The notes beneath the pieces were generated by a model, which saw only the letters and a list, made by a program, of their open reading frames with translations, was not told where the DNA came from and ran no database searches. The translations under genes were made by a program, and so were the position numbers. Of a stretch of DNA of 64,000 nucleotides, positions 3,141 to 17,820 are shown piece after piece. Location of the stretch: NCBI GenBank assembly GCA_965227295.1, contig OZ245742.1, forward strand, positions 1,440,001-1,504,000, given 5' to 3'. Source of the stretch: Leptonemataceae bacterium. GTDB lineage: Bacteria; Spirochaetota; Leptospiria; Leptospirales; Leptonemataceae. The first letter of the stretch is position 1. The number at the start of each line of letters is the position of its first letter.

Positions 3141-4952
3141 TTAAGGCCCCTTGTAGATGACCTTATCCGGTTCGCCCGGTAATTCGCTGTTGTCTTTGAT
3201 CGCCGTTTCCAGGGCAGCCTGTTTTTGTTCGTCGTACCACCAGTATACCAGCGCCGAGTTCTCGCGGCTGTACTTGTTGATGACGTACTCCGGTGTTCCG
3301 AATTTGTTCCAGTACAGGAGACGCGTTTTGTCCGCCTGCCAGAGTAAGACGAACGGCGTGAGTTCCAGCAATCGCGCGTCCAGTTGTTTGATGAGCGTAT
3401 TGCGGCGCCCCAGGTTCGTTTCGAACTTGAGTTTCTCCAGGATGGCGTCCACTGTTTCGTCTTTTACGCCGGCCAGGTTGTACGAGGACTCCAGATCCGC
3501 GAAACGCGAGTGAAACATGGGCTCCGGATCGCGCAGGCGGGAGGCCCCGGTGTTGATCCAGAAGATGTCGAACTGAAACGAGTCCGTGCGTTTGGTGACC
3601 TCGGCCTTGGAGCGCAGCTCGATCTTCGCGTCGATGCCGACCTTCTTAAGATCTTCAATGTACAGGTTTAGATGGCGTTGGTCGCTCGCATATGTTAAGA
3701 ACGTAACCGACAACGGCTGCCCGTCCTTCCGGCGTTTGCCGCCGGGGCCGACGGCCCAGCCGGCCTCGTCCAGGAGATCCCGGGCCTTCGCCGGATCGTA
3801 GCGCACCACCGGCACCGCCGGGTTCTGGTTCTTCGGATAGAGGTCCGGGAAGTACGAGTTCAACAGAAAGTATTCGTTAAACATCAACTTTTCGTTCATT
3901 AGCGGAAGGTTGATGAGGCGCGTGAGGGCCTCCCGCACGCGCGGGTCCGCGAATTTATCGAGACGCATGTTGATGGCCAGGCCCTGGAAACCCAGCGGTT
4001 GTTTGTTGTACGCGGCCTGGCGGACGATGTGATTCTTTTGCACGGCCTCGATGTTTTGCGTCTGCTCGGCCCAGATGGAAGCCGTGTAGATGGCGTAAAG
4101 ATCGTAGTCGCCTTTCTTGAACGCTTCCAGCGCTGCCGTGCGATCTTCCATGAACTTATAGCGGATGTAATCGAAGTTGAACTTGTTTTGATTGTAGCCG
4201 CGCGCCCGCGCCCACCAATCGCCGCGACGTTCCAGCAGCACGTAACGATTGCGACGGAATTCGCGGATCTTGTACGGACCGTTTACGACCGGAAAGTCGA
4301 AGTTGACCTTGTTGAAGTCCTCGCCTTCCCAGACGTGCTTCGGGAAGGCGTAGAACCCGCCGGCGTCCCAGAAGGCACGCCAGTGTTTTTCCTTCGCCAC
4401 GATCTTTACGGTTTTTTCGTCGATGACTTCCGGACGTTCGAAGCGTTCGAGAATGGAACGCGGGATCGTCGTAAGATGTTTCGGGTTCATGATGACGTCG
4501 TAGTAGAACTGCACGTCGGCAGCGCTTACCGGCTTGCCGTCGGACCACTGCGCGTCCGGATGAATGGTAAACGTGAAGGTTTTGCCGTCGGCGCCGCGGT
4601 CCCACTGTGCGGCCAGGTCGCCCACCGGCTCTTCGCGTACGCTGTGCAGATCGATGAGCGCGTGAAACATGAGGTTGTTGATTTCGGCGGTTGTGGCCCA
4701 GTTGTCCAGCCAGGAGTTCAGGGTCTTCGGGAACGGTCCGCCCCAGAGATTGAACGTGCCGCCCTTAACGGCGCCGTCCACCGCGATGGGGTCCGCGCTG
4801 CCAGGGCCCTCGACTTCGTAGGGTTCCGTTTGCACCGGCGGAAGTTCGGTGGAAGAATCGTTTTTTCCGTTGCAAGCCAGGACGGTTCCCGCGAGAACCA
4901 GGATTGGAATGATGGTGCGGTACGTGCGGAGATCTGAGTGCAGTTTCATCAT
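3141..4952 (-). CDS. ABC transporter extracellular solute-binding lipoprotein, family 5 (YejA-like)
   Basis: Lipoprotein-like signal (IIPILVLAGTVLA-C), KGGTF, GDLA..W, WSDGKPVSAADV, DPRVREAL. Likely start ATG 4952 or 4949 rather than the ORF-track 5030. Confidence 0.9.
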   Translation of the reverse strand: MMKLHSDLRTYRTIIPILVLAGTVLACNGKNDSSTELPPVQTEPYEVEGPGSADPIAVDGAVKGGTFNLWGGPFPKTLNSWLDNWATTAEINNLMFHALIDLHSVREEPVGDLAAQWDRGADGKTFTFTIHPDAQWSDGKPVSAADVQFYYDVIMNPKHLTTIPRSILERFERPEVIDEKTVKIVAKEKHWRAFWDAGGFYAFPKHVWEGEDFNKVNFDFPVVNGPYKIREFRRNRYVLLERRGDWWARARGYNQNKFNFDYIRYKFMEDRTAALEAFKKGDYDLYAIYTASIWAEQTQNIEAVQKNHIVRQAAYNKQPLGFQGLAINMRLDKFADPRVREALTRLINLPLMNEKLMFNEYFLLNSYFPDLYPKNQNPAVPVVRYDPAKARDLLDEAGWAVGPGGKRRKDGQPLSVTFLTYASDQRHLNLYIEDLKKVGIDAKIELRSKAEVTKRTDSFQFDIFWINTGASRLRDPEPMFHSRFADLESSYNLAGVKDETVDAILEKLKFETNLGRRNTLIKQLDARLLELTPFVLLWQADKTRLLYWNKFGTPEYVINKYSRENSALVYWWYDEQKQAALETAIKDNSELPGEPDKVIYKGP

Positions 4953-4956
4953 AAAT

Positions 4957-6882
4957 ATGCTTCTGAAGACGCTGGTATGGGTCATGCCTGTGTCGGTTGT
5001 TTCGGTTGTCGGGCCGTCGTGCAATAACAATCCTTACGGATCGTACTCCGATCGCAAGGTCTTCTATACGTCTCTCGACGAAAATCCGGCTACCCTTGAT
5101 CCCCAGCGGATCAGCGACGTGGACTCGCAGTACGTCGGATCGAATATTCACGACACGCCGTACGAGTTCCACTATCTCAAGCGTCCGCTGGAGCTGCAGC
5201 CGTCCATGGCCCGGGCGATGCCCGAGACCGGCTGGAAAACCGTGGGCGGTCGCCGCGTATACTTTATGAGATTCTCGCTCAAGCGCGGCCTGCGTTTCGA
5301 CGACGACCCGTGTTTTGCTGACGGCCGCGGCCGCGAGATTACCGTGGACGATCTGATCCTGGCCATTCGTCGCGCGGCCGACGATTCCATCGAACCCTTC
5401 GGCAAGACCTTTCTGATGGACCGGCTCATCGGCTTTCGCGAGTTTCACGAGAATTTTGACGAAGCCCCGCAGGCGGCCATCGCCGGCGTCGCACGCATCG
5501 ACGATGACACGCTGGAGTTGTTATACGATGCTCCGTATCCCCAGGCGATCTACTTTCTCGCGCACGTTACGTCGTCGCCGGTGCCGGCCGAGTGCCTTGC
5601 CTACTACAACGGTGAAGACGGCCGGCCGGCGTACGACCGCGCTGCCGTCGCCAGTGGTCCGTATCGCATTGCGGAGTGGCGGGATCATCATGAACTCATT
5701 CTCGAACGCAATCCGAATTACCGCGACGACGATCGCTATCCGGAGACGGGCGTGGAAGGCGATCGCGCGGCCGGGCTCTTAGATCGTGCCGGGCAGAAGT
5801 TACCGATGCTGGATACAGTGCGTGTGTTGATCATCAAACGCGGTCCGCCGAAGTGGGAGCTGTTCGGTCAGGGGTACCTGGATTTGTATCGCAACCGACT
5901 GGACCTGCAGGAACGGCTCATGCAGAGTCCCGATCGGGCCGCCGCGTTTGAACGCAAGAACGTCACGAAGGCCGTCGAGGTGGAGCTGTCGTCGTTCGGC
6001 TGGTCGTTCAATATGCTGGATCCGGTAATCGGTAGTAATCTAAAGTTAAGACAGGCCCTCTCGCTGGCCGTGGACCGCGAGGAGATGATCCGCCTGTTTC
6101 TACCCGGCCGCGCGACGATTGCCCACGGGCCGATTCCGCCGGGCATCGCCGGTCACGATCCGGAGTACACGAGTCCCTGGAGCCGCTACGATCCAGGGCG
6201 CGCGAAAGAGCTGCTGGCCGAGGCGGGTTATCCCGGCGGTGTCGATCCGGCCACGGGTCGCGCGCTGGAGTTGCAGTTGTTCGATCGGGCGGCGCAGGGG
6301 CGTGCGGCGATTTACCGTTTTTATATTGATCAGTTCGCGGATATCGGTGTGAAACTTACGGTGGATCAGATGGATTTTCCGACGCTCATTCAAAAAATGC
6401 ATGCGAAAAACTTTCAAATCATTCACTGGGGCTGGGGCGCGGACTACCCGGATCCCGAGAATTTTTTACAGCTCTTCTACGGGCCGAACGCGAAGTCCAC
6501 GTACAACTCCAGCTCCTACCGCAATGCTGAGTACGACGCCCTCTACGAACAAATGGCGCGCATGAACGACGGTCCGGAGCGCAGCGCGTTGATCCGGCGC
6601 ATGTACGACATCCTGAACGCCGATCTTCCGAAGACGTTTTTCTTTCACCGGCAGAGCCACTATTTTACCCAGGCCTGGGCCGCGCCGGTCAAACCCAGTC
6701 CGCTGGATTATCGCGAGATGAAGTACTGGGACGTGGACATCGAAGAGCGCGAACGCAAGGTCCGCGAGTGGAACAGCCTGAGCTTTACGGCCTGGCTGAT
6801 CGTCCTGTGTTTCGCGGCGGGGGCTGTCGCGCTGATCTACCTTTCCCGGCGAAGAATGCGCCACTGGAGCCGCGGTTCATGA
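4957..6882 (+). CDS. ABC transporter substrate-binding protein, family 5, with C-terminal transmembrane helix
   Basis: Signal ending in S-C-NNNPY, TLDP, GPY, LRQALSLAVDR, GWGADYPDPENFLQLFYGPN; C-terminal hydrophobic helix followed by RRRMR. Start refined to ATG 4957. Confidence 0.88.
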   Translation: MLLKTLVWVMPVSVVSVVGPSCNNNPYGSYSDRKVFYTSLDENPATLDPQRISDVDSQYVGSNIHDTPYEFHYLKRPLELQPSMARAMPETGWKTVGGRRVYFMRFSLKRGLRFDDDPCFADGRGREITVDDLILAIRRAADDSIEPFGKTFLMDRLIGFREFHENFDEAPQAAIAGVARIDDDTLELLYDAPYPQAIYFLAHVTSSPVPAECLAYYNGEDGRPAYDRAAVASGPYRIAEWRDHHELILERNPNYRDDDRYPETGVEGDRAAGLLDRAGQKLPMLDTVRVLIIKRGPPKWELFGQGYLDLYRNRLDLQERLMQSPDRAAAFERKNVTKAVEVELSSFGWSFNMLDPVIGSNLKLRQALSLAVDREEMIRLFLPGRATIAHGPIPPGIAGHDPEYTSPWSRYDPGRAKELLAEAGYPGGVDPATGRALELQLFDRAAQGRAAIYRFYIDQFADIGVKLTVDQMDFPTLIQKMHAKNFQIIHWGWGADYPDPENFLQLFYGPNAKSTYNSSSYRNAEYDALYEQMARMNDGPERSALIRRMYDILNADLPKTFFFHRQSHYFTQAWAAPVKPSPLDYREMKYWDVDIEERERKVREWNSLSFTAWLIVLCFAAGAVALIYLSRRRMRHWSRGS

Positions 6883-7862
6883 GCGCGTATATTGTCCGGC
6901 GTTTGTTGTACTTCCTGCCCGTGTGGTTCGGGGTGTTTCTCTTAACGTTCAGCATCTTTCACTTACACGATCCCATGACGCTGGCCGCCGTGCAGTTGCC
7001 CCAGGCGCCGGAAGATCGTCTGCGTGCCTGGGTGCGCAACAACGACTATCATTTGCCGCTCTTCTTGAATCTGCCGTCCGATGCCGAAACGATTCGCGCC
7101 GACGGCGAAGTGCATCCGGAGTTCGCGGAGCGTTCGCTGTTTTATTCGCAGTTCTTCTTGAGCGTGCGTGATCTACTGCTCTTTGATTTTGGTACGGACC
7201 GTGCAAAGAAACCCATCGCGGAGTCCGTCGCCGAGCGCGTGGGTCCGACGCTTTCCATCATGTTGCCCGCGCTCGCGTTGACGGTAGTGATCAGCATCGT
7301 CGTGGCGCTACTGTCCGCGTATCTGCGCGGCACGCCGGTGGACGTCGTCGGCGTGGTCGGCAGCGTCGCGTTGCTTTCGATTGCGCTGCCGGTTTACATT
7401 CTCGCCGCCCAATACCTGTTCGGGCGATTGTTTCCGGTGGTGCCGGTGTACGGTCATGTGCTTGCGCCCATCATCATTGCGGTCTTCGGCAGTGTCGGCG
7501 CGCACGTGCGTTTTTATCGGAGCGTATTTTTGGAACAGATGGATCAGGAATTTGTGCGCACGGCTCGCGCGAAAGGCGCGCCGGAATCACGGGTCCTCGG
7601 CCGCCATGTACTGCGCAATTCCTGGATCCCGGTGCTCACGCAGGTGTCACTGTCGGTGCCGTACTTAATTACCGGTTCGCTGTTGTTGGAACAATTTTTC
7701 GGCATACCGGGCATGGGCGATCTGCTGTACTCGGCGCTGGTGGCGCGAGATTTTCAGGTGATCAAGGTGATTACGTATTTAGGTTCGTTTGTTTACATGA
7801 TGAGCATGCTCGCCACGGACATCGCGTATACGCTGGTGGATCCGCGGATTCGTTTTCGGTAA
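6879..7862 (+). CDS. ABC transporter permease (DppB-like)
   Basis: MSAYIVRRLLY, FVRTARAKG, RHVLRNS, DPRIRF; ATGA overlap with the upstream stop. Confidence 0.92.
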   Translation: MSAYIVRRLLYFLPVWFGVFLLTFSIFHLHDPMTLAAVQLPQAPEDRLRAWVRNNDYHLPLFLNLPSDAETIRADGEVHPEFAERSLFYSQFFLSVRDLLLFDFGTDRAKKPIAESVAERVGPTLSIMLPALALTVVISIVVALLSAYLRGTPVDVVGVVGSVALLSIALPVYILAAQYLFGRLFPVVPVYGHVLAPIIIAVFGSVGAHVRFYRSVFLEQMDQEFVRTARAKGAPESRVLGRHVLRNSWIPVLTQVSLSVPYLITGSLLLEQFFGIPGMGDLLYSALVARDFQVIKVITYLGSFVYMMSMLATDIAYTLVDPRIRFR

Positions 7863-7867
7863 CATTG

Positions 7868-8902
7868 ATGCACTGGTTGTTACAGAACATACTGTTGATC
7901 GTCGGTGCCGTGCTGTTCGCGGCCTGGTATCGATACATGCGCAATCGCGGCGGCCTGGCCCATGCCCGGGAGCGACTCCGCTGCGTTCCCGGGGCGCGGC
8001 TCGCAGGCATTGTGCTCGCGATCTACTTCACGATCGGCTACGTGGATTTGCTGCGCATCCCGGCCGCGGGCGAACGGCTCTTCGCCGTAAGTCCCATTGA
8101 TTTAATCTTTAGCGCCGTCCCGCAGGAACGAACTTACAGTGCTCCTTTTGCGAGCAGCGTTATTACCGCCGTGGACGAAGACCCGCAGGCGCCGCAAAAC
8201 CGCGTGCGTGGGTGGCACGTCCTTGGCACCGACGTGAACGGATACGATGTCCTGTATAACGTCTGCAAGGGCTGCGGCGTGGCGCTGCTGCTCGTCCTCG
8301 GTACCATGCTCGTAAGTTTCCCGCTCGGCTTGTTGCTCGGACTCGCGGCCGGGTACTTCGGTGGTTTCGTGGACGACGTCGTGCAGTGGTTGTATACGAC
8401 CATGGCGAGCATCCCGTGGCTCTTGTTTGTTCTGGCCTTCCTGGCCGTCTTCGGTCGCTCGCTCTTGTGGATCTGCGTGGCCTTCGGGCTCACGTCCTGG
8501 ACCGAACTCGCGCGCTTGATTCGCGGCGAAACTCTGAAACTGCGCGAACTGAATTACGTGCGTTCCGCGCGATCCGCCGGTGTTTCTCCGGCACGCACGA
8601 TCCTGCGGCACATCCTGCCGAATCTCTCGCACGTTTACATCGTAACGTTTACGATCACCGCGTCGTCGATCGTGCTGGCCGAAAGCGTGCTGACGTTCAT
8701 CGGCATCGGCGTGGAGCCGGGGCAAAGTTCCTGGGGGCGCATGTTAGTGGAGGCGCAGACGGAACTCGTACGTTCGCCGCCGATTTGGTGGGTGTTTGCG
8801 GGAGCGTCGTTTTTGGGGATTTTTCCCCTGGTGCTCGCGTTGAATGTGTTCGGGGATGCGCTAAGGGACGCGCTGGATCCGCGGTTGGATCGGCGAAAGT
8901 GA
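7868..8902 (+). CDS. ABC transporter permease (DppC-like)
   Basis: HVLGTDVNGYD, YVRSARSAG, RHILPN, SWGRML, GDALRDALDP. Confidence 0.92.
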   Translation: MHWLLQNILLIVGAVLFAAWYRYMRNRGGLAHARERLRCVPGARLAGIVLAIYFTIGYVDLLRIPAAGERLFAVSPIDLIFSAVPQERTYSAPFASSVITAVDEDPQAPQNRVRGWHVLGTDVNGYDVLYNVCKGCGVALLLVLGTMLVSFPLGLLLGLAAGYFGGFVDDVVQWLYTTMASIPWLLFVLAFLAVFGRSLLWICVAFGLTSWTELARLIRGETLKLRELNYVRSARSAGVSPARTILRHILPNLSHVYIVTFTITASSIVLAESVLTFIGIGVEPGQSSWGRMLVEAQTELVRSPPIWWVFAGASFLGIFPLVLALNVFGDALRDALDPRLDRRK

Positions 8903-8922
8903 GGGTCAGGGGGCGCCTTCCT

Positions 8923-9876
8923 TTAAGTCTCGGCGGATTTGGTTTTCGGATTGATTTCAGCGTTCCTGGTGCCGCCTTCGTCTCTTGCGGGCCCGGGATT
9001 CTCGGTGTAGAGACTGGCTTCTCGAACTCGAATATTGTGCAGTAGTTCTGTGTGTCGTGTTGGAATTTTCGAAAGAAGGGGATCCGATACATCGTTGTCG
9101 CCAAGAATGTACGGTTCACAGATCATAAGGGGATCCTTTACTGCTGCAACATATTCTTGTAGGTACTCTCGAAGGTTGCTTGCATTTACAGGTTTTCTTT
9201 CCATTACGCTTCGATAGAGTCTATTCTCCTCGGAAGCCATAGAAATCCAGATGATCGGATAGGGCTTTCCGCGCATTACTCCCTTCAGGGGTTCGGTCCC
9301 ATCAAGAAAATAGTCAAAATCCGGGTCCAATATGACGCGCGTCAGAATTAGTGCAAGTTCCACGGATATAATAAACTTACCGTCACTCGCATATTTGCAC
9401 AGGCGAAATCCTGCGTCAATGGAAGGTCCGATATAGTCGACAAGTTCTCGAATCGTATGTGTAGTCGGCTCAGTCTCAATCCTGGCGTTCACAACGGGAA
9501 AACCTGCGGTCCAGGCCGTCGCCTTTAAGGATAGTGGAAGATCTTGTCTGCGTATAATTTCTATGTAATTGGTGATACTGCTGCGGAATGCGCGAATGAT
9601 ATGTTTTGCGTGTTTCCCGTCGCTGAGCTTGACTGTATAAACTAATTCGTCTCCGAGAAGTTTCCAGAGTTCCGGAATTTGATCTGCATTCGGGTTCCAA
9701 TCGGGTATGTTGTATATTTCGGATCGCAGTTCTCTATCAAAGTCTCCGTATAAATCCTTGAAAAACTTAAGCCACGGATGTTCGTCTTTGCGTTCTTCAT
9801 GTGGATTGTTTTTGTATGCCGTGGCACCGACCACGTCGATACTGACGAAGAGTATTAGTTCTGCGTTGACAGGCAT
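8923..9876 (-). CDS. Hypothetical protein with divergent class III nucleotidyl (adenylate/guanylate) cyclase-like domain
   Basis: Motif order matches class III cyclases: LFVSIDVVGAT (first metal Asp), WKLLGDE (KxxGD), DYIGPSIDAGFRL (DxxGxxVNxAxRL-like), LKG. DNA is visibly lower in GC than the flanks. Confidence 0.65.
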   Translation of the reverse strand: MPVNAELILFVSIDVVGATAYKNNPHEERKDEHPWLKFFKDLYGDFDRELRSEIYNIPDWNPNADQIPELWKLLGDELVYTVKLSDGKHAKHIIRAFRSSITNYIEIIRRQDLPLSLKATAWTAGFPVVNARIETEPTTHTIRELVDYIGPSIDAGFRLCKYASDGKFIISVELALILTRVILDPDFDYFLDGTEPLKGVMRGKPYPIIWISMASEENRLYRSVMERKPVNASNLREYLQEYVAAVKDPLMICEPYILGDNDVSDPLLSKIPTRHTELLHNIRVREASLYTENPGPARDEGGTRNAEINPKTKSAET

Positions 9877-9896
9877 TACGCATTTCTTAGGATTTC

Positions 9897-10430
9897 TTAT
9901 TTGATTCCCAGAGTATCTGCTCGAACAGACACTGCGGCTGGCGAAACATAAAACTTAACTGCAGTTTGGCGCGGGCCGTATTTCTGGTAGTAGTCCGAAA
10001 AAGGCTGCGCGGGCATGAGGAAGGCGGCAGCAAACCAATTGGCCTCCCATTCCTCGCGAGTACTTCCAAATCGTTCCGCGCGTATTTTCATTTCACCCTG
10101 CATTGAGTGCAGGAAGTAATGACCCAACTCGTGTGCGATGGAGAATCGGTTTCTTGTCGGTCCGGTAAAATTTGATACGTATATGTCGAAATTGCATTGC
10201 TCGTGAACAACTATCGAAGCATGCGCTGTTTGTTCCCATAGAACGTAGTCTACAAAGTGGACCGTGCCACCGAATGCGTTGGCGACGGGAATAATGTCGT
10301 CGCCGGGAGCATAGCCGGCGGCTCTCGCGACTTCCTCGGCAGTGTGCTCGACGCTAGTGCGAGAGAAATTACCAGGCATCGCTTGTGGATATTCCTGACC
10401 TGGGAGGTGATTCTTTTCTGCCGCATTCAT
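9897..10430 (-). CDS. ImmA/IrrE family metallo-endopeptidase (no HTH domain)
   Basis: RNRFSIAHELGHYFLH (HExxH) and EWEANWFAAAFLMP; likely start ATG 10430. Confidence 0.88.
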   Translation of the reverse strand: MNAAEKNHLPGQEYPQAMPGNFSRTSVEHTAEEVARAAGYAPGDDIIPVANAFGGTVHFVDYVLWEQTAHASIVVHEQCNFDIYVSNFTGPTRNRFSIAHELGHYFLHSMQGEMKIRAERFGSTREEWEANWFAAAFLMPAQPFSDYYQKYGPRQTAVKFYVSPAAVSVRADTLGIK

Positions 10431-10624
10431 GGAGGTTGCCTGAATATACGTGGATAGCTTGCACACAGATGTGGCACCCGATCCCTGGTTTGCAACCGTA
10501 AAAACGCCAGGATTCTCAAGGTGCGGTGAATCATCAGGGAAAGTGTCCCTTTATGTGTATGTAGACCCTCAGAGCAGAAGCATAGTGTACATAATTCTTG
10601 ATGCAGGGCGCCAGCCGGTCCCAC

Positions 10625-16429
<5,805 letters not shown>

Positions 16430-16431
16430 GC

Positions 16432-17820
16432 TCAACCTCTCCCGGAGATGCCGGCGTAGATGTCCCGGCGGCCGGCGGGCAGGCCGGAGGGGCCCTTGGG
16501 ACCGATCTTCGTCACCAGCGTTTGAAAGATAACCATGGAGCCCTCGTGAAAACCCAGGGACACTCCGGCAAGATACAACAACCACAGCCGGTACTTTTCA
16601 GCGCCCACCAGGCGAATCGCCTCGTCTTTGCGTTCCTGTAAGTTGCGCGCCCAGTGCGCGCAGGTGAGCGCGTAGTGTTCGCGGATGGCCTCGACGTCGT
16701 GGACCTCGAAGCCGCGCAGTTCGAACTGCTCCACCTGATGGCCGATATCGTCGAGTTCGGAGCCGGGAAAAATGTACTTGAGAAGCAGGCGTTTTTCTTT
16801 CGTGATGTGTCGACGTCGATGGGCGGGTTTCGCGCGGCGGGCGATGCAATGATGCAACATTACGCCGCCGGGTTTCAGCATGTCGTACTGTTTTTGATAG
16901 TAACGTTCCCAGTTCGCGCTGCCCATGTGTTCGAACATGCCGATGCTCGCGATCTTGTCGTACGGGCCGTCGGCGGGAACGTGATGAAAGAAATCGTTGC
17001 ATTCCACGGTAACGCGATCTTCCAGGCCCAGCTCCCGAACCTTGCGCACGGCCCATTCGTGCTGCGCCGGCGACAGCGTCACCGCGTGGACGTGCACGCC
17101 GTAGTGTTGCGCCATGTGACACGTGAGTCCGCCCCAGCCGCAGCCCGTGTCCAGCACGCGCTCGCCGGGTTGCAGGCGCAACTTACGCGCGACCAGGTCC
17201 ATCTTATCGAACTGCGCCTGCGCCAGGGAATTCTCCCAATCGTGAAAGTAGGCGCAGGTGTACTGCATCTCTTTGTCGAGCCACAACGCGTAGAATTCGT
17301 TGGAAAGATCGTAGTGGAACTGAATGAACTCGCCGTGTTTCCGTTTCGCGCCGCTCCGGCCGATCTCGTCGTCGGCGTAAGCGTTCGCGTTGACATACTT
17401 GCCGGGCCACACGAACAGAAACGGCAGCAGCCGGCGCAGCACGAACCACTTGTTCACGGACTTGAGGCCGCGCTTGAACTCCGGCGTGCGCATGGACTTC
17501 AGAAAATCGATGATGTCGTCGTCGGAGAAGTCGATCTGCCCGGCGGCGTAGCGCATGAGCGTGTTTTCCAGGTTCCACGGTCGTCGCAGAATCGAACCGA
17601 CGGCGCCGGGATCGTTTACGGACAGGTGATATTGTACGGCTTTGCCGCTATGATTCAGCGGGTAGATTTTATTGTCCCAGAGTTTGAGGCCGATGGGTGC
17701 GTCCAGGCGTTCGGCCAGGTGATCCACTACGGCCCGCAGGGCATCGAGCAGTCGATCACTGCCTTTGCCGGCTGTCGCGGGCGGGAAGGCGGGCTGCGGA
17801 GCGACGGTATTGTTAGACAT
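16432..17820 (-). CDS. cfa: Cyclopropane-fatty-acyl-phospholipid synthase family methyltransferase
   Basis: HYDLSNEFY, MQYTCAYF, VLDTGCGWGG, SIGMFEH, YIFPG, HYALT..HW. Confidence 0.9.
   Translation of the reverse strand: MSNNTVAPQPAFPPATAGKGSDRLLDALRAVVDHLAERLDAPIGLKLWDNKIYPLNHSGKAVQYHLSVNDPGAVGSILRRPWNLENTLMRYAAGQIDFSDDDIIDFLKSMRTPEFKRGLKSVNKWFVLRRLLPFLFVWPGKYVNANAYADDEIGRSGAKRKHGEFIQFHYDLSNEFYALWLDKEMQYTCAYFHDWENSLAQAQFDKMDLVARKLRLQPGERVLDTGCGWGGLTCHMAQHYGVHVHAVTLSPAQHEWAVRKVRELGLEDRVTVECNDFFHHVPADGPYDKIASIGMFEHMGSANWERYYQKQYDMLKPGGVMLHHCIARRAKPAHRRRHITKEKRLLLKYIFPGSELDDIGHQVEQFELRGFEVHDVEAIREHYALTCAHWARNLQERKDEAIRLVGAEKYRLWLLYLAGVSLGFHEGSMVIFQTLVTKIGPKGPSGLPAGRRDIYAGISGRG

Follow-up and report, generated by a model that had tools for sequence, protein, structure and literature searches.

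A 64,000-nucleotide (nt) stretch of the genome of a Leptonemataceae bacterium (Spirochaetota; GenBank assembly GCA_965227295.1, contig OZ245742.1, positions 1,440,001 to 1,504,000 of the forward strand; 'the window' in the following) carries on its minus strand two co-oriented genes, one for an M78 (ImmA/IrrE-type) zinc peptidase (9897-10430) and one for a 317-amino-acid (aa) protein (8923-9876), which by its predicted structure has the fold of class III nucleotidyl cyclases. Since the pair is tight and near-obligate, has no third partner and is mobile over phyla, plasmids and phages, we read it as a conflict module of the toxin-antitoxin or abortive-infection type, complete with its two genes and spread horizontally, in which a divergent cyclase effector would be directly controlled by the peptidase. 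We give this reading a probability of roughly 45%.

Pairing of the two genes across loci

The locus set was seeded on the cyclase-like protein only, using two peptide patterns, and consists of the best 80 of 91 confirmed matches. In 73 of these 80 loci a peptidase gene was found directly upstream and on the same strand (tblastn). Homologues thus do co-occur with the peptidase, as an earlier annotation of this DNA, made from the sequence alone (the first-pass annotation), had supposed when it proposed a joint system. The paired loci belong to Spirochaetota, Verrucomicrobiota, Planctomycetota, Alpha-, Beta- and other Pseudomonadota, Armatimonadota and Campylobacterota. Three of the seven loci without a peptidase match (L061, L096 and L088) have less than 400 nt of upstream DNA; an unknown open reading frame (ORF) of 148 aa precedes the cyclase-like gene in L035, and the upstream partner in L089 and L091 is M78-derived without the HExxH motif (peptidase-profile E 2.6e-6 and 4.5e-10 in a two-sequence search). 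In L084 (Magnetococcales), a gene for an RNase_T (DEDD) exonuclease (Pfam E 2.9e-24) occupies the peptidase's place at 5226-5948. Within the genomes of relatives, the peptidase lay upstream at eight of eight places in six genomes, with one weak match of 33 aa and at least four being the same records as in the locus set.

All-against-all clustering of the 929 ORFs of at least 70 aa from the 80 loci returned only two recurrent families, present in 75 and 59 loci, while the next cluster reached 6; neither a third conserved gene family nor a conserved helix-turn-helix (HTH) gene was found across these loci. The two ORFs overlap or lie no more than 35 nt apart in 52 of 55 pairs, negative values arising partly from over-long ORF starts. 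The distance matrices of the two proteins are correlated (r = 0.66 over 55 pairs; 500 shuffles gave a mean of 0.00 and a maximum of 0.16), as is expected of genes moving together. HExxH is present in 54 of the 61 upstream ORFs picked by script, the others being L042 and L088 (cut by a contig end), L028 and L044 (the ORF picked is not the tblastn match), L084, L089 and L091.

The family of the cyclase-like protein comprises 1,623 representatives at 50% identity (E ≤ 1e-3), 158 of them with E ≤ 1e-30. Its 51 clusters at 90% identity are all hypothetical or unnamed, the corresponding PHROGs entry (phrog_18024, E 1.3e-47) is labelled 'unknown function', and the ESM Atlas neighbours are unnamed, apart from one cluster automatically named 'Adenylate cyclase, class 3', which we treat as a lead only. 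In full-text searches and in the main texts consulted, we found no description of the M78 and cyclase-like pair; it could be listed in supplementary tables of surveys, such as NetFlax Dataset S1, the tables of systems by Millman et al. or the CapP-associated operons of Lau et al.

A divergent cyclase and a minimal peptidase

No Pfam, NCBIfam or PADLOC model matches the 317-aa protein at E ≤ 1, and it stands outside the 51 PF00211 matches of its own genome. Its AlphaFold model, built from a 50-sequence alignment (predicted local confidence, pLDDT, 88.3; predicted template-modelling score, pTM, 0.86), gave 186 PDB matches at E ≤ 1e-3 in Foldseek, led by CyaC (1wc4_B, E 3.7e-10), CyaB (3r5g_B, 4.2e-10) and the C2 domain of mammalian adenylate cyclase (AC; 1cjk_B, 9e-10). 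Structure comparison with VIA yielded Z scores of 14.7-16.4 to canonical class III cyclases; the match to CyaB (3r5g_B; Z 16.4, root mean square deviation 2.9 over 184 residues) covers model residues 1-216, and no VIA match was found beyond residue 216. Direct sequence searches were weak (1ybt at E 0.12 and 1wc0 at E 1.1 in a PDB profile search), and against a single cyclase domain the profile of the protein reached a probability of 2%. In an hhalign comparison with 29 cyclase domains from its own genome, it reached 89.8% (E 1.8e-6, 169 columns) with the motifs in register. The first-pass annotation had suggested a structure search for the cyclase fold, and on the model the protein has the class III fold, as returned by both Foldseek and VIA.

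The alignment to the 29 domains also places the catalytic residues (Table 1). The motifs pointed out at first pass, SIDVVGAT, KLLGDE, PSIDAGFRL and LKG, are present in the translation; their columns are invariant in the family and correspond to the catalytic motifs of the 29 cyclase domains. Among 77 sequences, D14 is kept in 74, K72, D76 and E77 in 76 each, and R158 in 75; K198 is kept in 68, with Arg in 4 more. The column of the transition-state Asn holds Asp (Asp154) in 74 of the 77 sequences, with one Asn and two gaps, so that the exchange of Asn for Asp already noticed in the single protein is a property of its relatives as well. D147 stands seven residues ahead of D154. In mammalian class III cyclases, the adenine-specifying Asp occupies the equivalent position; the Lys/Asp pair K72/D147 therefore suggests ATP as substrate, which the cyclase-like protein most likely binds through these two residues. 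E77, K118, W122 and N130 are invariants private to the family, and E77, directly after the second metal Asp, forms a G-D-E hairpin, which we take to recall GGDEF. Judged from these columns, the protein looks like an active enzyme with one systematic departure, Asn to Asp.

Behind the cyclase domain, the model predicts helices at residues 216-225, 232-246 and 273-292, which build a structured block with pLDDT 78-96. A conserved PYPIIW block stands just ahead of this extension; P207 is invariant and P255 nearly so. The cyclase-like protein has no recognisable sensor domain, and a search for fused longer forms of it (556-2000 aa) found none, which is weak evidence. Prediction of a 1:1 complex of the 317-aa protein with the peptidase scored 0.25 against a mark of 0.32 and is evidence neither way.

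Table 1. Features of the two-gene pair in the window, and residues of the 317-aa protein equated with cyclase motifs
Feature	Position in window	Strand	Basis or remark
M78 (ImmA/IrrE-type) zinc peptidase	9897..10430	-	Peptidase domain only; HELGH at 10119-10133
Spacer from peptidase stop to cyclase-like start, 20 bp, one operon	9877..9896	-	ORF coordinates
Cyclase-homology domain, residues 1-216 of the 317-aa protein	9229..9876	-	Predicted structure, Foldseek, VIA, hhalign
C-terminal helical extension, family-specific, residues 217-295	8992..9228	-	pLDDT 78-96, conserved prolines
Disordered tail, residues 296-317, with stop codon	8923..8991	-	pLDDT 48-60; length and sequence variable in alignment
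Upstream intergenic region, presumed promoter of the pair	10431..10624	-	Position only
D14, first metal Asp			hhalign to 29 cyclase domains
K72-x-x-G-D76, K-x-x-G-D hairpin (base-specifying Lys, second metal Asp)			hhalign
D154...R158, N...R transition-state pair			hhalign
K198-G, K-G (phosphate Lys)			hhalign

The sole Pfam match of the peptidase is Peptidase_M78 (E 3.2e-18), and the Pfam search returned no HTH family in it, in line with its first description as an HTH-less HExxH enzyme. The ORF has a long form of 189 aa that starts from GTG (9897..10466); the ATG at 10430 yields 177 aa, and the alignments of relatives begin at about residue 24-31 of the 189-aa form. H100, E101, H104 and H108 are invariant among 47 aligned relatives, E127 and E129 nearly so, as is the whole E-W-E-A-N-W-F-A...L-M-P block. 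The best PADLOC match is capP (E 1.2e-21, model positions 4-145 of 242), followed by fifteen RmrA models, from E 3e-14, which match on the peptidase part only (approximately positions 106-294 of models with 357-400 positions). The predicted structure (pLDDT 92.4) ranks CapP first (7t5t, E 3.2e-6; TM score normalised to the target, TMt, 0.36), then PprI/IrrE and then a mycobacterial HTH-M78 regulator; the target-normalised scores run from 0.32 to 0.41, and those to the CapP and PprI chains of 240-278 residues from 0.36 to 0.41. By its sequence, the peptidase is the catalytic domain alone, lacking an HTH, a GAF domain and a central HTH-like linker. According to two reports, CapP and IrrE have a GAF domain and an inter-domain groove for single-stranded DNA (ssDNA; 10.1101/2022.04.27.489752, PMC13228613). 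The peptidase has no GAF domain and therefore no such groove, and the analogy with ssDNA-activated switches drawn at first pass does not extend to it.

Two sphingomonad loci hold partners of another kind. The M78-derived proteins of L089:5416-5940 and L091:5258-5935 keep the C-terminal '..LMP..F....V....R' block and have no HExxH, while the cyclase-like genes beside them (L089:5956-6990 and L091:5932-7086) keep every catalytic residue. These lineages are diverged, with cyclase-like proteins 39% identical and partners 24% identical over 112 residues. The partner without HExxH is likely a pseudo-peptidase regulator, and as an intact cyclase stands beside it, control by binding fits better than activation by cleavage.

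Genomic setting, distribution and neighbouring genes

In the window, the two genes form an islet with a GC content of 0.445-0.480 (9000-10199) between flanks of 0.56-0.63 (5000-8999) and 0.57-0.63 (from 10600 on), all measured in 400-nt windows. On the left, the islet borders on an ABC permease gene (BPD_transp_1, E 8.7e-28), the second of two such genes, which ends at 8902; on the right, it borders on the gene of a 1986-aa Pkinase/AAA_16/GAF/Guanylate_cyc protein (10625-16585), which ends at 10625. The latter is one of the 51 PF00211 class III cyclase matches of the host genome, whose signalling repertoire is unusually rich in cyclic AMP and GMP (cAMP/cGMP) enzymes. ORF listing and GC content agree with the first-pass description of two AT-rich co-oriented genes 20 bp apart between a permease and a kinase-cyclase gene; as it had also stated, no effector or HTH gene adjoins the pair among the ORFs of the window. 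A consensus scan of the minus strand in 10431..10624 yielded no promoter-like site, and neither repeats nor att-like sites were found flanking the pair. Comparison with the same-genus genomes yielded no empty site: they have the permease gene, at 69% aa identity, but the 10 kb downstream contain no copy of the pair or of the kinase-cyclase gene.

Occurrence within the own lineage is patchy, with the pair in 7 of 40 relatives and in neither of two same-genus genomes (93% complete each). Among 301 genomes sampled from the phylum it is present in 12, belonging to 6 of 126 genera, and two copies have an in-frame stop. Both of these are cyclase-like genes in genomes of the same order (G180:C47:28474-29337 and G291:C3:1067-1930) with one stop each (TGA, TAA) and are probably decaying. 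By record title, the hosts include Leptospira, Magnetococcales, Verrucomicrobiota, Planctomycetota, Bradyrhizobium, other Alphaproteobacteria, Burkholderiales, Campylobacterales and Armatimonadota. Seven plasmid records contain the pair, and so do 12 phage records, three for Leptospira phage LE1 and nine spread over five Clostridioides phages; LE1 and the Clostridioides phage phiCD27 are temperate. In LE1, gp81 precedes gp80 and the pair adjoins the CI repressor; in phiCD27, gp38 ('metallo-protease') overlaps gp37 between the lysis genes and the integrase. Both phage pairs keep the catalytic residues. HELGH is found in both phage peptidases, and LE1 gp80 keeps all 21 key positions; in phiCD27 gp37 (L097:3839-5425), Arg and Glu occupy the two base-specifying positions. 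A report of 2009 already noted COG2856 operons in phiC2 and LE1, linking them to Xre HTH proteins (PMC2701414). The Clostridioides phage homologues are 528 aa long (phrog_6174), with the cyclase-like part N-terminal and about 200 extra C-terminal residues. A 510-aa metagenomic relative (P0051) has a NUDIX match below the cut-off (E 0.0055), and one phage record annotates the cyclase-like gene as 'putative Nudix hydrolase'.

Neighbours were scanned at 74 loci, with up to two ORFs per side, at E ≤ 1e-8 in batch 1 and E ≤ 1e-12 in batch 2 (L062 is in both), leaving out look-alikes of kinases, QueC, FtsK and rRNA methylases. A gene with a PADLOC model was among the four nearest ORFs in 23 of the 74 loci, a count that is descriptive only: 15 of 42 loci in batch 1 (L027, L029 and L036 being weak or regulatory) and 8 of 33 in batch 2. 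The matches comprise type I, IIG and III restriction-modification, Kiwa, PD-T4-3, HEC-06/GmrSD with a PIN_8 gene, PycTM-like genes, MADS, PDC-S05, PDC-S15, and CapH with CapP. At four further loci, L017, L034, L037 and L054, transposases or an integrase lie beside the pair (Pfam). Together with the phage records, these matches bear out the first-pass suggestion that homologues be sought near defence or mobile genes and in prophages, where they often are.

Several of these settings deserve mention on their own. In L069, the pair stands between two ORFs (4810-5313 and 7278-7616) that match the N-terminal (3-151) and the C-terminal end (846-908) of a single type IIG restriction-methylase model; the cassette seems to have taken the place of the middle part of this gene. 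In L025 (Bradyrhizobium), full-length CapH (E 9.6e-12) and CapP (E 6.6e-51, positions 8-242 of 242) lie directly upstream on the same strand (3588-5045), forming a regulator distinct from the pair, and the cassette may be cargo of this CapH/CapP switch. A complete Kiwa pair (KwaA E 1.7e-38, KwaB E 1.9e-65) follows immediately downstream of the cassette in L093 (7010-8432, Planctomycetaceae). In two alphaproteobacterial loci, PycTM-like genes with two transmembrane segments (L045:7079-7618 and L059:7254-7865) stand convergent, right after the cyclase-like gene; their predecessors on their own strand are a 305-aa unknown ORF (L045) and a DUF5677 gene (L059), and they may be part of a neighbouring system.

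Weighing the readings and comparison with known systems

Zinc-peptidase antitoxins that act with toxins of many families are an established kind of defence, as described in the main texts on RosmerTA and on the ImmA-protease hub of NetFlax (node D25) (10.1101/2022.05.11.491447, PMC10440598). In a conflict module of this kind, the minimal M78 peptidase would act directly on the cyclase-like protein, there being no HTH substrate adjoining. In the uninfected cell, it would hold the cyclase-like protein harmless through binding and probably also cleavage, as is assumed of RmrA and its toxins, until phage infection or another stress breaks this control. The cyclase-like protein would be the effector which, once unleashed, consumes ATP and/or makes a nucleotide product and thereby arrests the cell; the outcome might be cAMP, another product as suggested by the Asp and the G-D-E hairpin, or simply loss of ATP. 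What the analysis shows is the fold, the intact catalytic residues of the two enzymes, their near-obligate adjacency without a conserved third gene, and the setting among mobile, phage and defence-island genes; physical interaction, direction of control, ATP as substrate, toxicity and an anti-phage effect are things that we infer.

The main rival, which we consider unlikely, is activation by cleavage: the C-terminal extension would auto-inhibit the enzyme, and the peptidase, on sensing infection or DNA damage, would cut it off and turn the enzyme on. This is close to the first-pass proposal that removal of the tail switches on a cyclase and leads to a cyclic nucleotide. It has in its favour that the cyclase domain continues into some 80 conserved and structured residues and then a variable tail, that HExxH and E-x-E-A-N are kept in most partners (54 of 61 ORFs; invariant in the 47 aligned), and that the relatives CapP, IrrE and ImmA are signal-activated peptidases (PMC13228613). 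Two observations nevertheless led us to favour neutralisation. The peptidase is a catalytic domain only, without GAF domain or CapP/IrrE ssDNA groove, and thus lacks the sensor parts of these relatives; and two diverged sphingomonad lineages lost the metal site of the partner yet kept all catalytic residues of the enzyme, which on this rival could never be switched on. Partners without HExxH next to an intact cyclase fit binding better.

Improbable as well, in our estimate, is a further alternative, in which the cyclase-like protein is not a cyclic nucleoside monophosphate (cNMP) cyclase but belongs to a new branch of palm-domain nucleotidyltransferases, marked by the invariant Asp at the Asn position and by the G-D-E hairpin. 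Such an enzyme would make a novel nucleotide product or, as a stand-alone effector, burn ATP without any receptor, and a minimal M78 peptidase would gate it after translation by recognising the enzyme and not an HTH repressor. If true, the ImmA/IrrE family would gain a new class of substrate, and more than six phyla and their phages would carry a nucleotide-based immunity module that has no receptor.

Rather remote is the idea that no conflict system is involved at all and that the genes are an accessory pair for cAMP-type signalling or regulation, or a phage lysis-lysogeny helper whose peptidase cuts a repressor from another locus. In favour of this, class III cyclases abound in the host genome (51 PF00211 matches), the LE1 pair lies beside the CI repressor and the phiCD27 pair near the integrase, and many loci have only housekeeping neighbours. 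Against this stand the lack of a conserved HTH gene adjoining the pair, the fact that most loci are not prophages, the patchy distribution over phyla, the low-GC islet, and a cyclase-like protein split from canonical cyclases beyond the reach of Pfam. Least probable appears the reverse wiring, with the cyclase-like protein as sensor and signal maker and the peptidase as effector cutting host or phage proteins, once the nucleotide is made, in the manner of cyclic-nucleotide-activated proteases of type III CRISPR, since 177 aa leave the peptidase no space for a nucleotide-binding domain, a sensor domain cannot be recognised in the cyclase-like protein and the partners without HExxH speak against an effector role, although both enzymes keep their catalytic residues and no other conserved effector gene is nearby.

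Several points weigh against the conflict module directly controlled by its peptidase. The retention of HExxH in 54 of 61 upstream ORFs implies that proteolysis, and not mere binding, is selected in most lineages, which also fits activation by cleavage, and an Asp in place of the transition-state Asn might make a poor cyclase. The best PADLOC match of the peptidase is capP, the peptidase of a transcriptional regulator, not RmrA; the latter moreover has an N-terminal Xre HTH in models of 357-400 positions, whereas the peptidase of 177 aa has none. The neighbours of the pair in the window are housekeeping-type genes and not a defence island, and many other loci likewise have housekeeping neighbours. 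Association of the pair with defence genes is suggestive, for the 23 of 74 loci come without a background rate, under two E-value limits and from kin loci that are not independent. In the literature we found no toxicity, cleavage, product or phage-resistance assay of any family member.

A family of about 1,600 clusters without a Pfam, NCBIfam or PADLOC model is now placed as a branch of class III cyclases that is tied to a partner peptidase, and the pair is small (1.5 kb). If it indeed defends against phages, it would employ a nucleotide-enzyme effector that needs no receptor, and the reach of ImmA/IrrE-type peptidases would extend from repressors to the direct control of an enzyme. The invariant exchange of Asn for Asp, together with the G-D-E hairpin, is a natural experiment on cyclase chemistry.

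With canonical class III cyclases (PF00211; CyaB of P. aeruginosa, CyaC of Spirulina, mammalian AC C2), the protein shares the fold, the metal Asp pair, the Lys/Asp pair, the Arg and the Lys. In contrast to them, it falls below every Pfam threshold and is reached only by profile-profile comparison; it has Asp for Asn, the residues E77, K118, W122 and N130, a private C-terminal extension and no sensor domain. Like Pycsar, the pair has a stand-alone class III cyclase fold as core of a mobile module in defence contexts. Unlike in Pycsar, a peptidase takes the partner's place, the Lys/Asp pair suggests a purine rather than a pyrimidine, Asn is replaced by Asp, and PycTM-like genes stand beside only 2 of 74 loci (L045 and L059), on the opposite strand. 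Membership in Pycsar was rejected, as there is no PADLOC match to PycC (E ≤ 1) and no conserved cNMP-binding effector.

CapP/CapH, IrrE/DdrO and ImmA/ImmR, systems in which a peptidase activated by ssDNA or damage cuts an HTH repressor, share with the pair the M78 domain and a zinc site of HExxH plus a downstream Glu, and CapP is the best match of the peptidase in both PADLOC and fold comparison. CapP/CapH differs in that the pair lacks an HTH partner gene, a central HTH-like linker and a GAF domain. We rejected membership in CapH/CapP because no neighbouring HTH repressor exists in the window or is conserved over the loci and no GAF domain is present. PADLOC search and ORF clustering thus concur with the first-pass view that the pair is neither Pycsar nor CapH/CapP.

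In our analysis, the closest known kind would be the zinc-peptidase antitoxin modules of the RosmerTA type, to which the first-pass annotation made no reference. These differ from the pair in that the order of genes here is almost always peptidase first, and the main texts on the two surveys name no cyclase-like RmrT (PMC10440598, 10.1101/2022.05.11.491447). Like RosmerTA and NetFlax D25, the pair is a two-gene operon of an M78/ImmA-type zinc peptidase and a partner of variable, often unannotated family; the RmrA models match its peptidase domain, and modules of both kinds are found in defence islands and phages.

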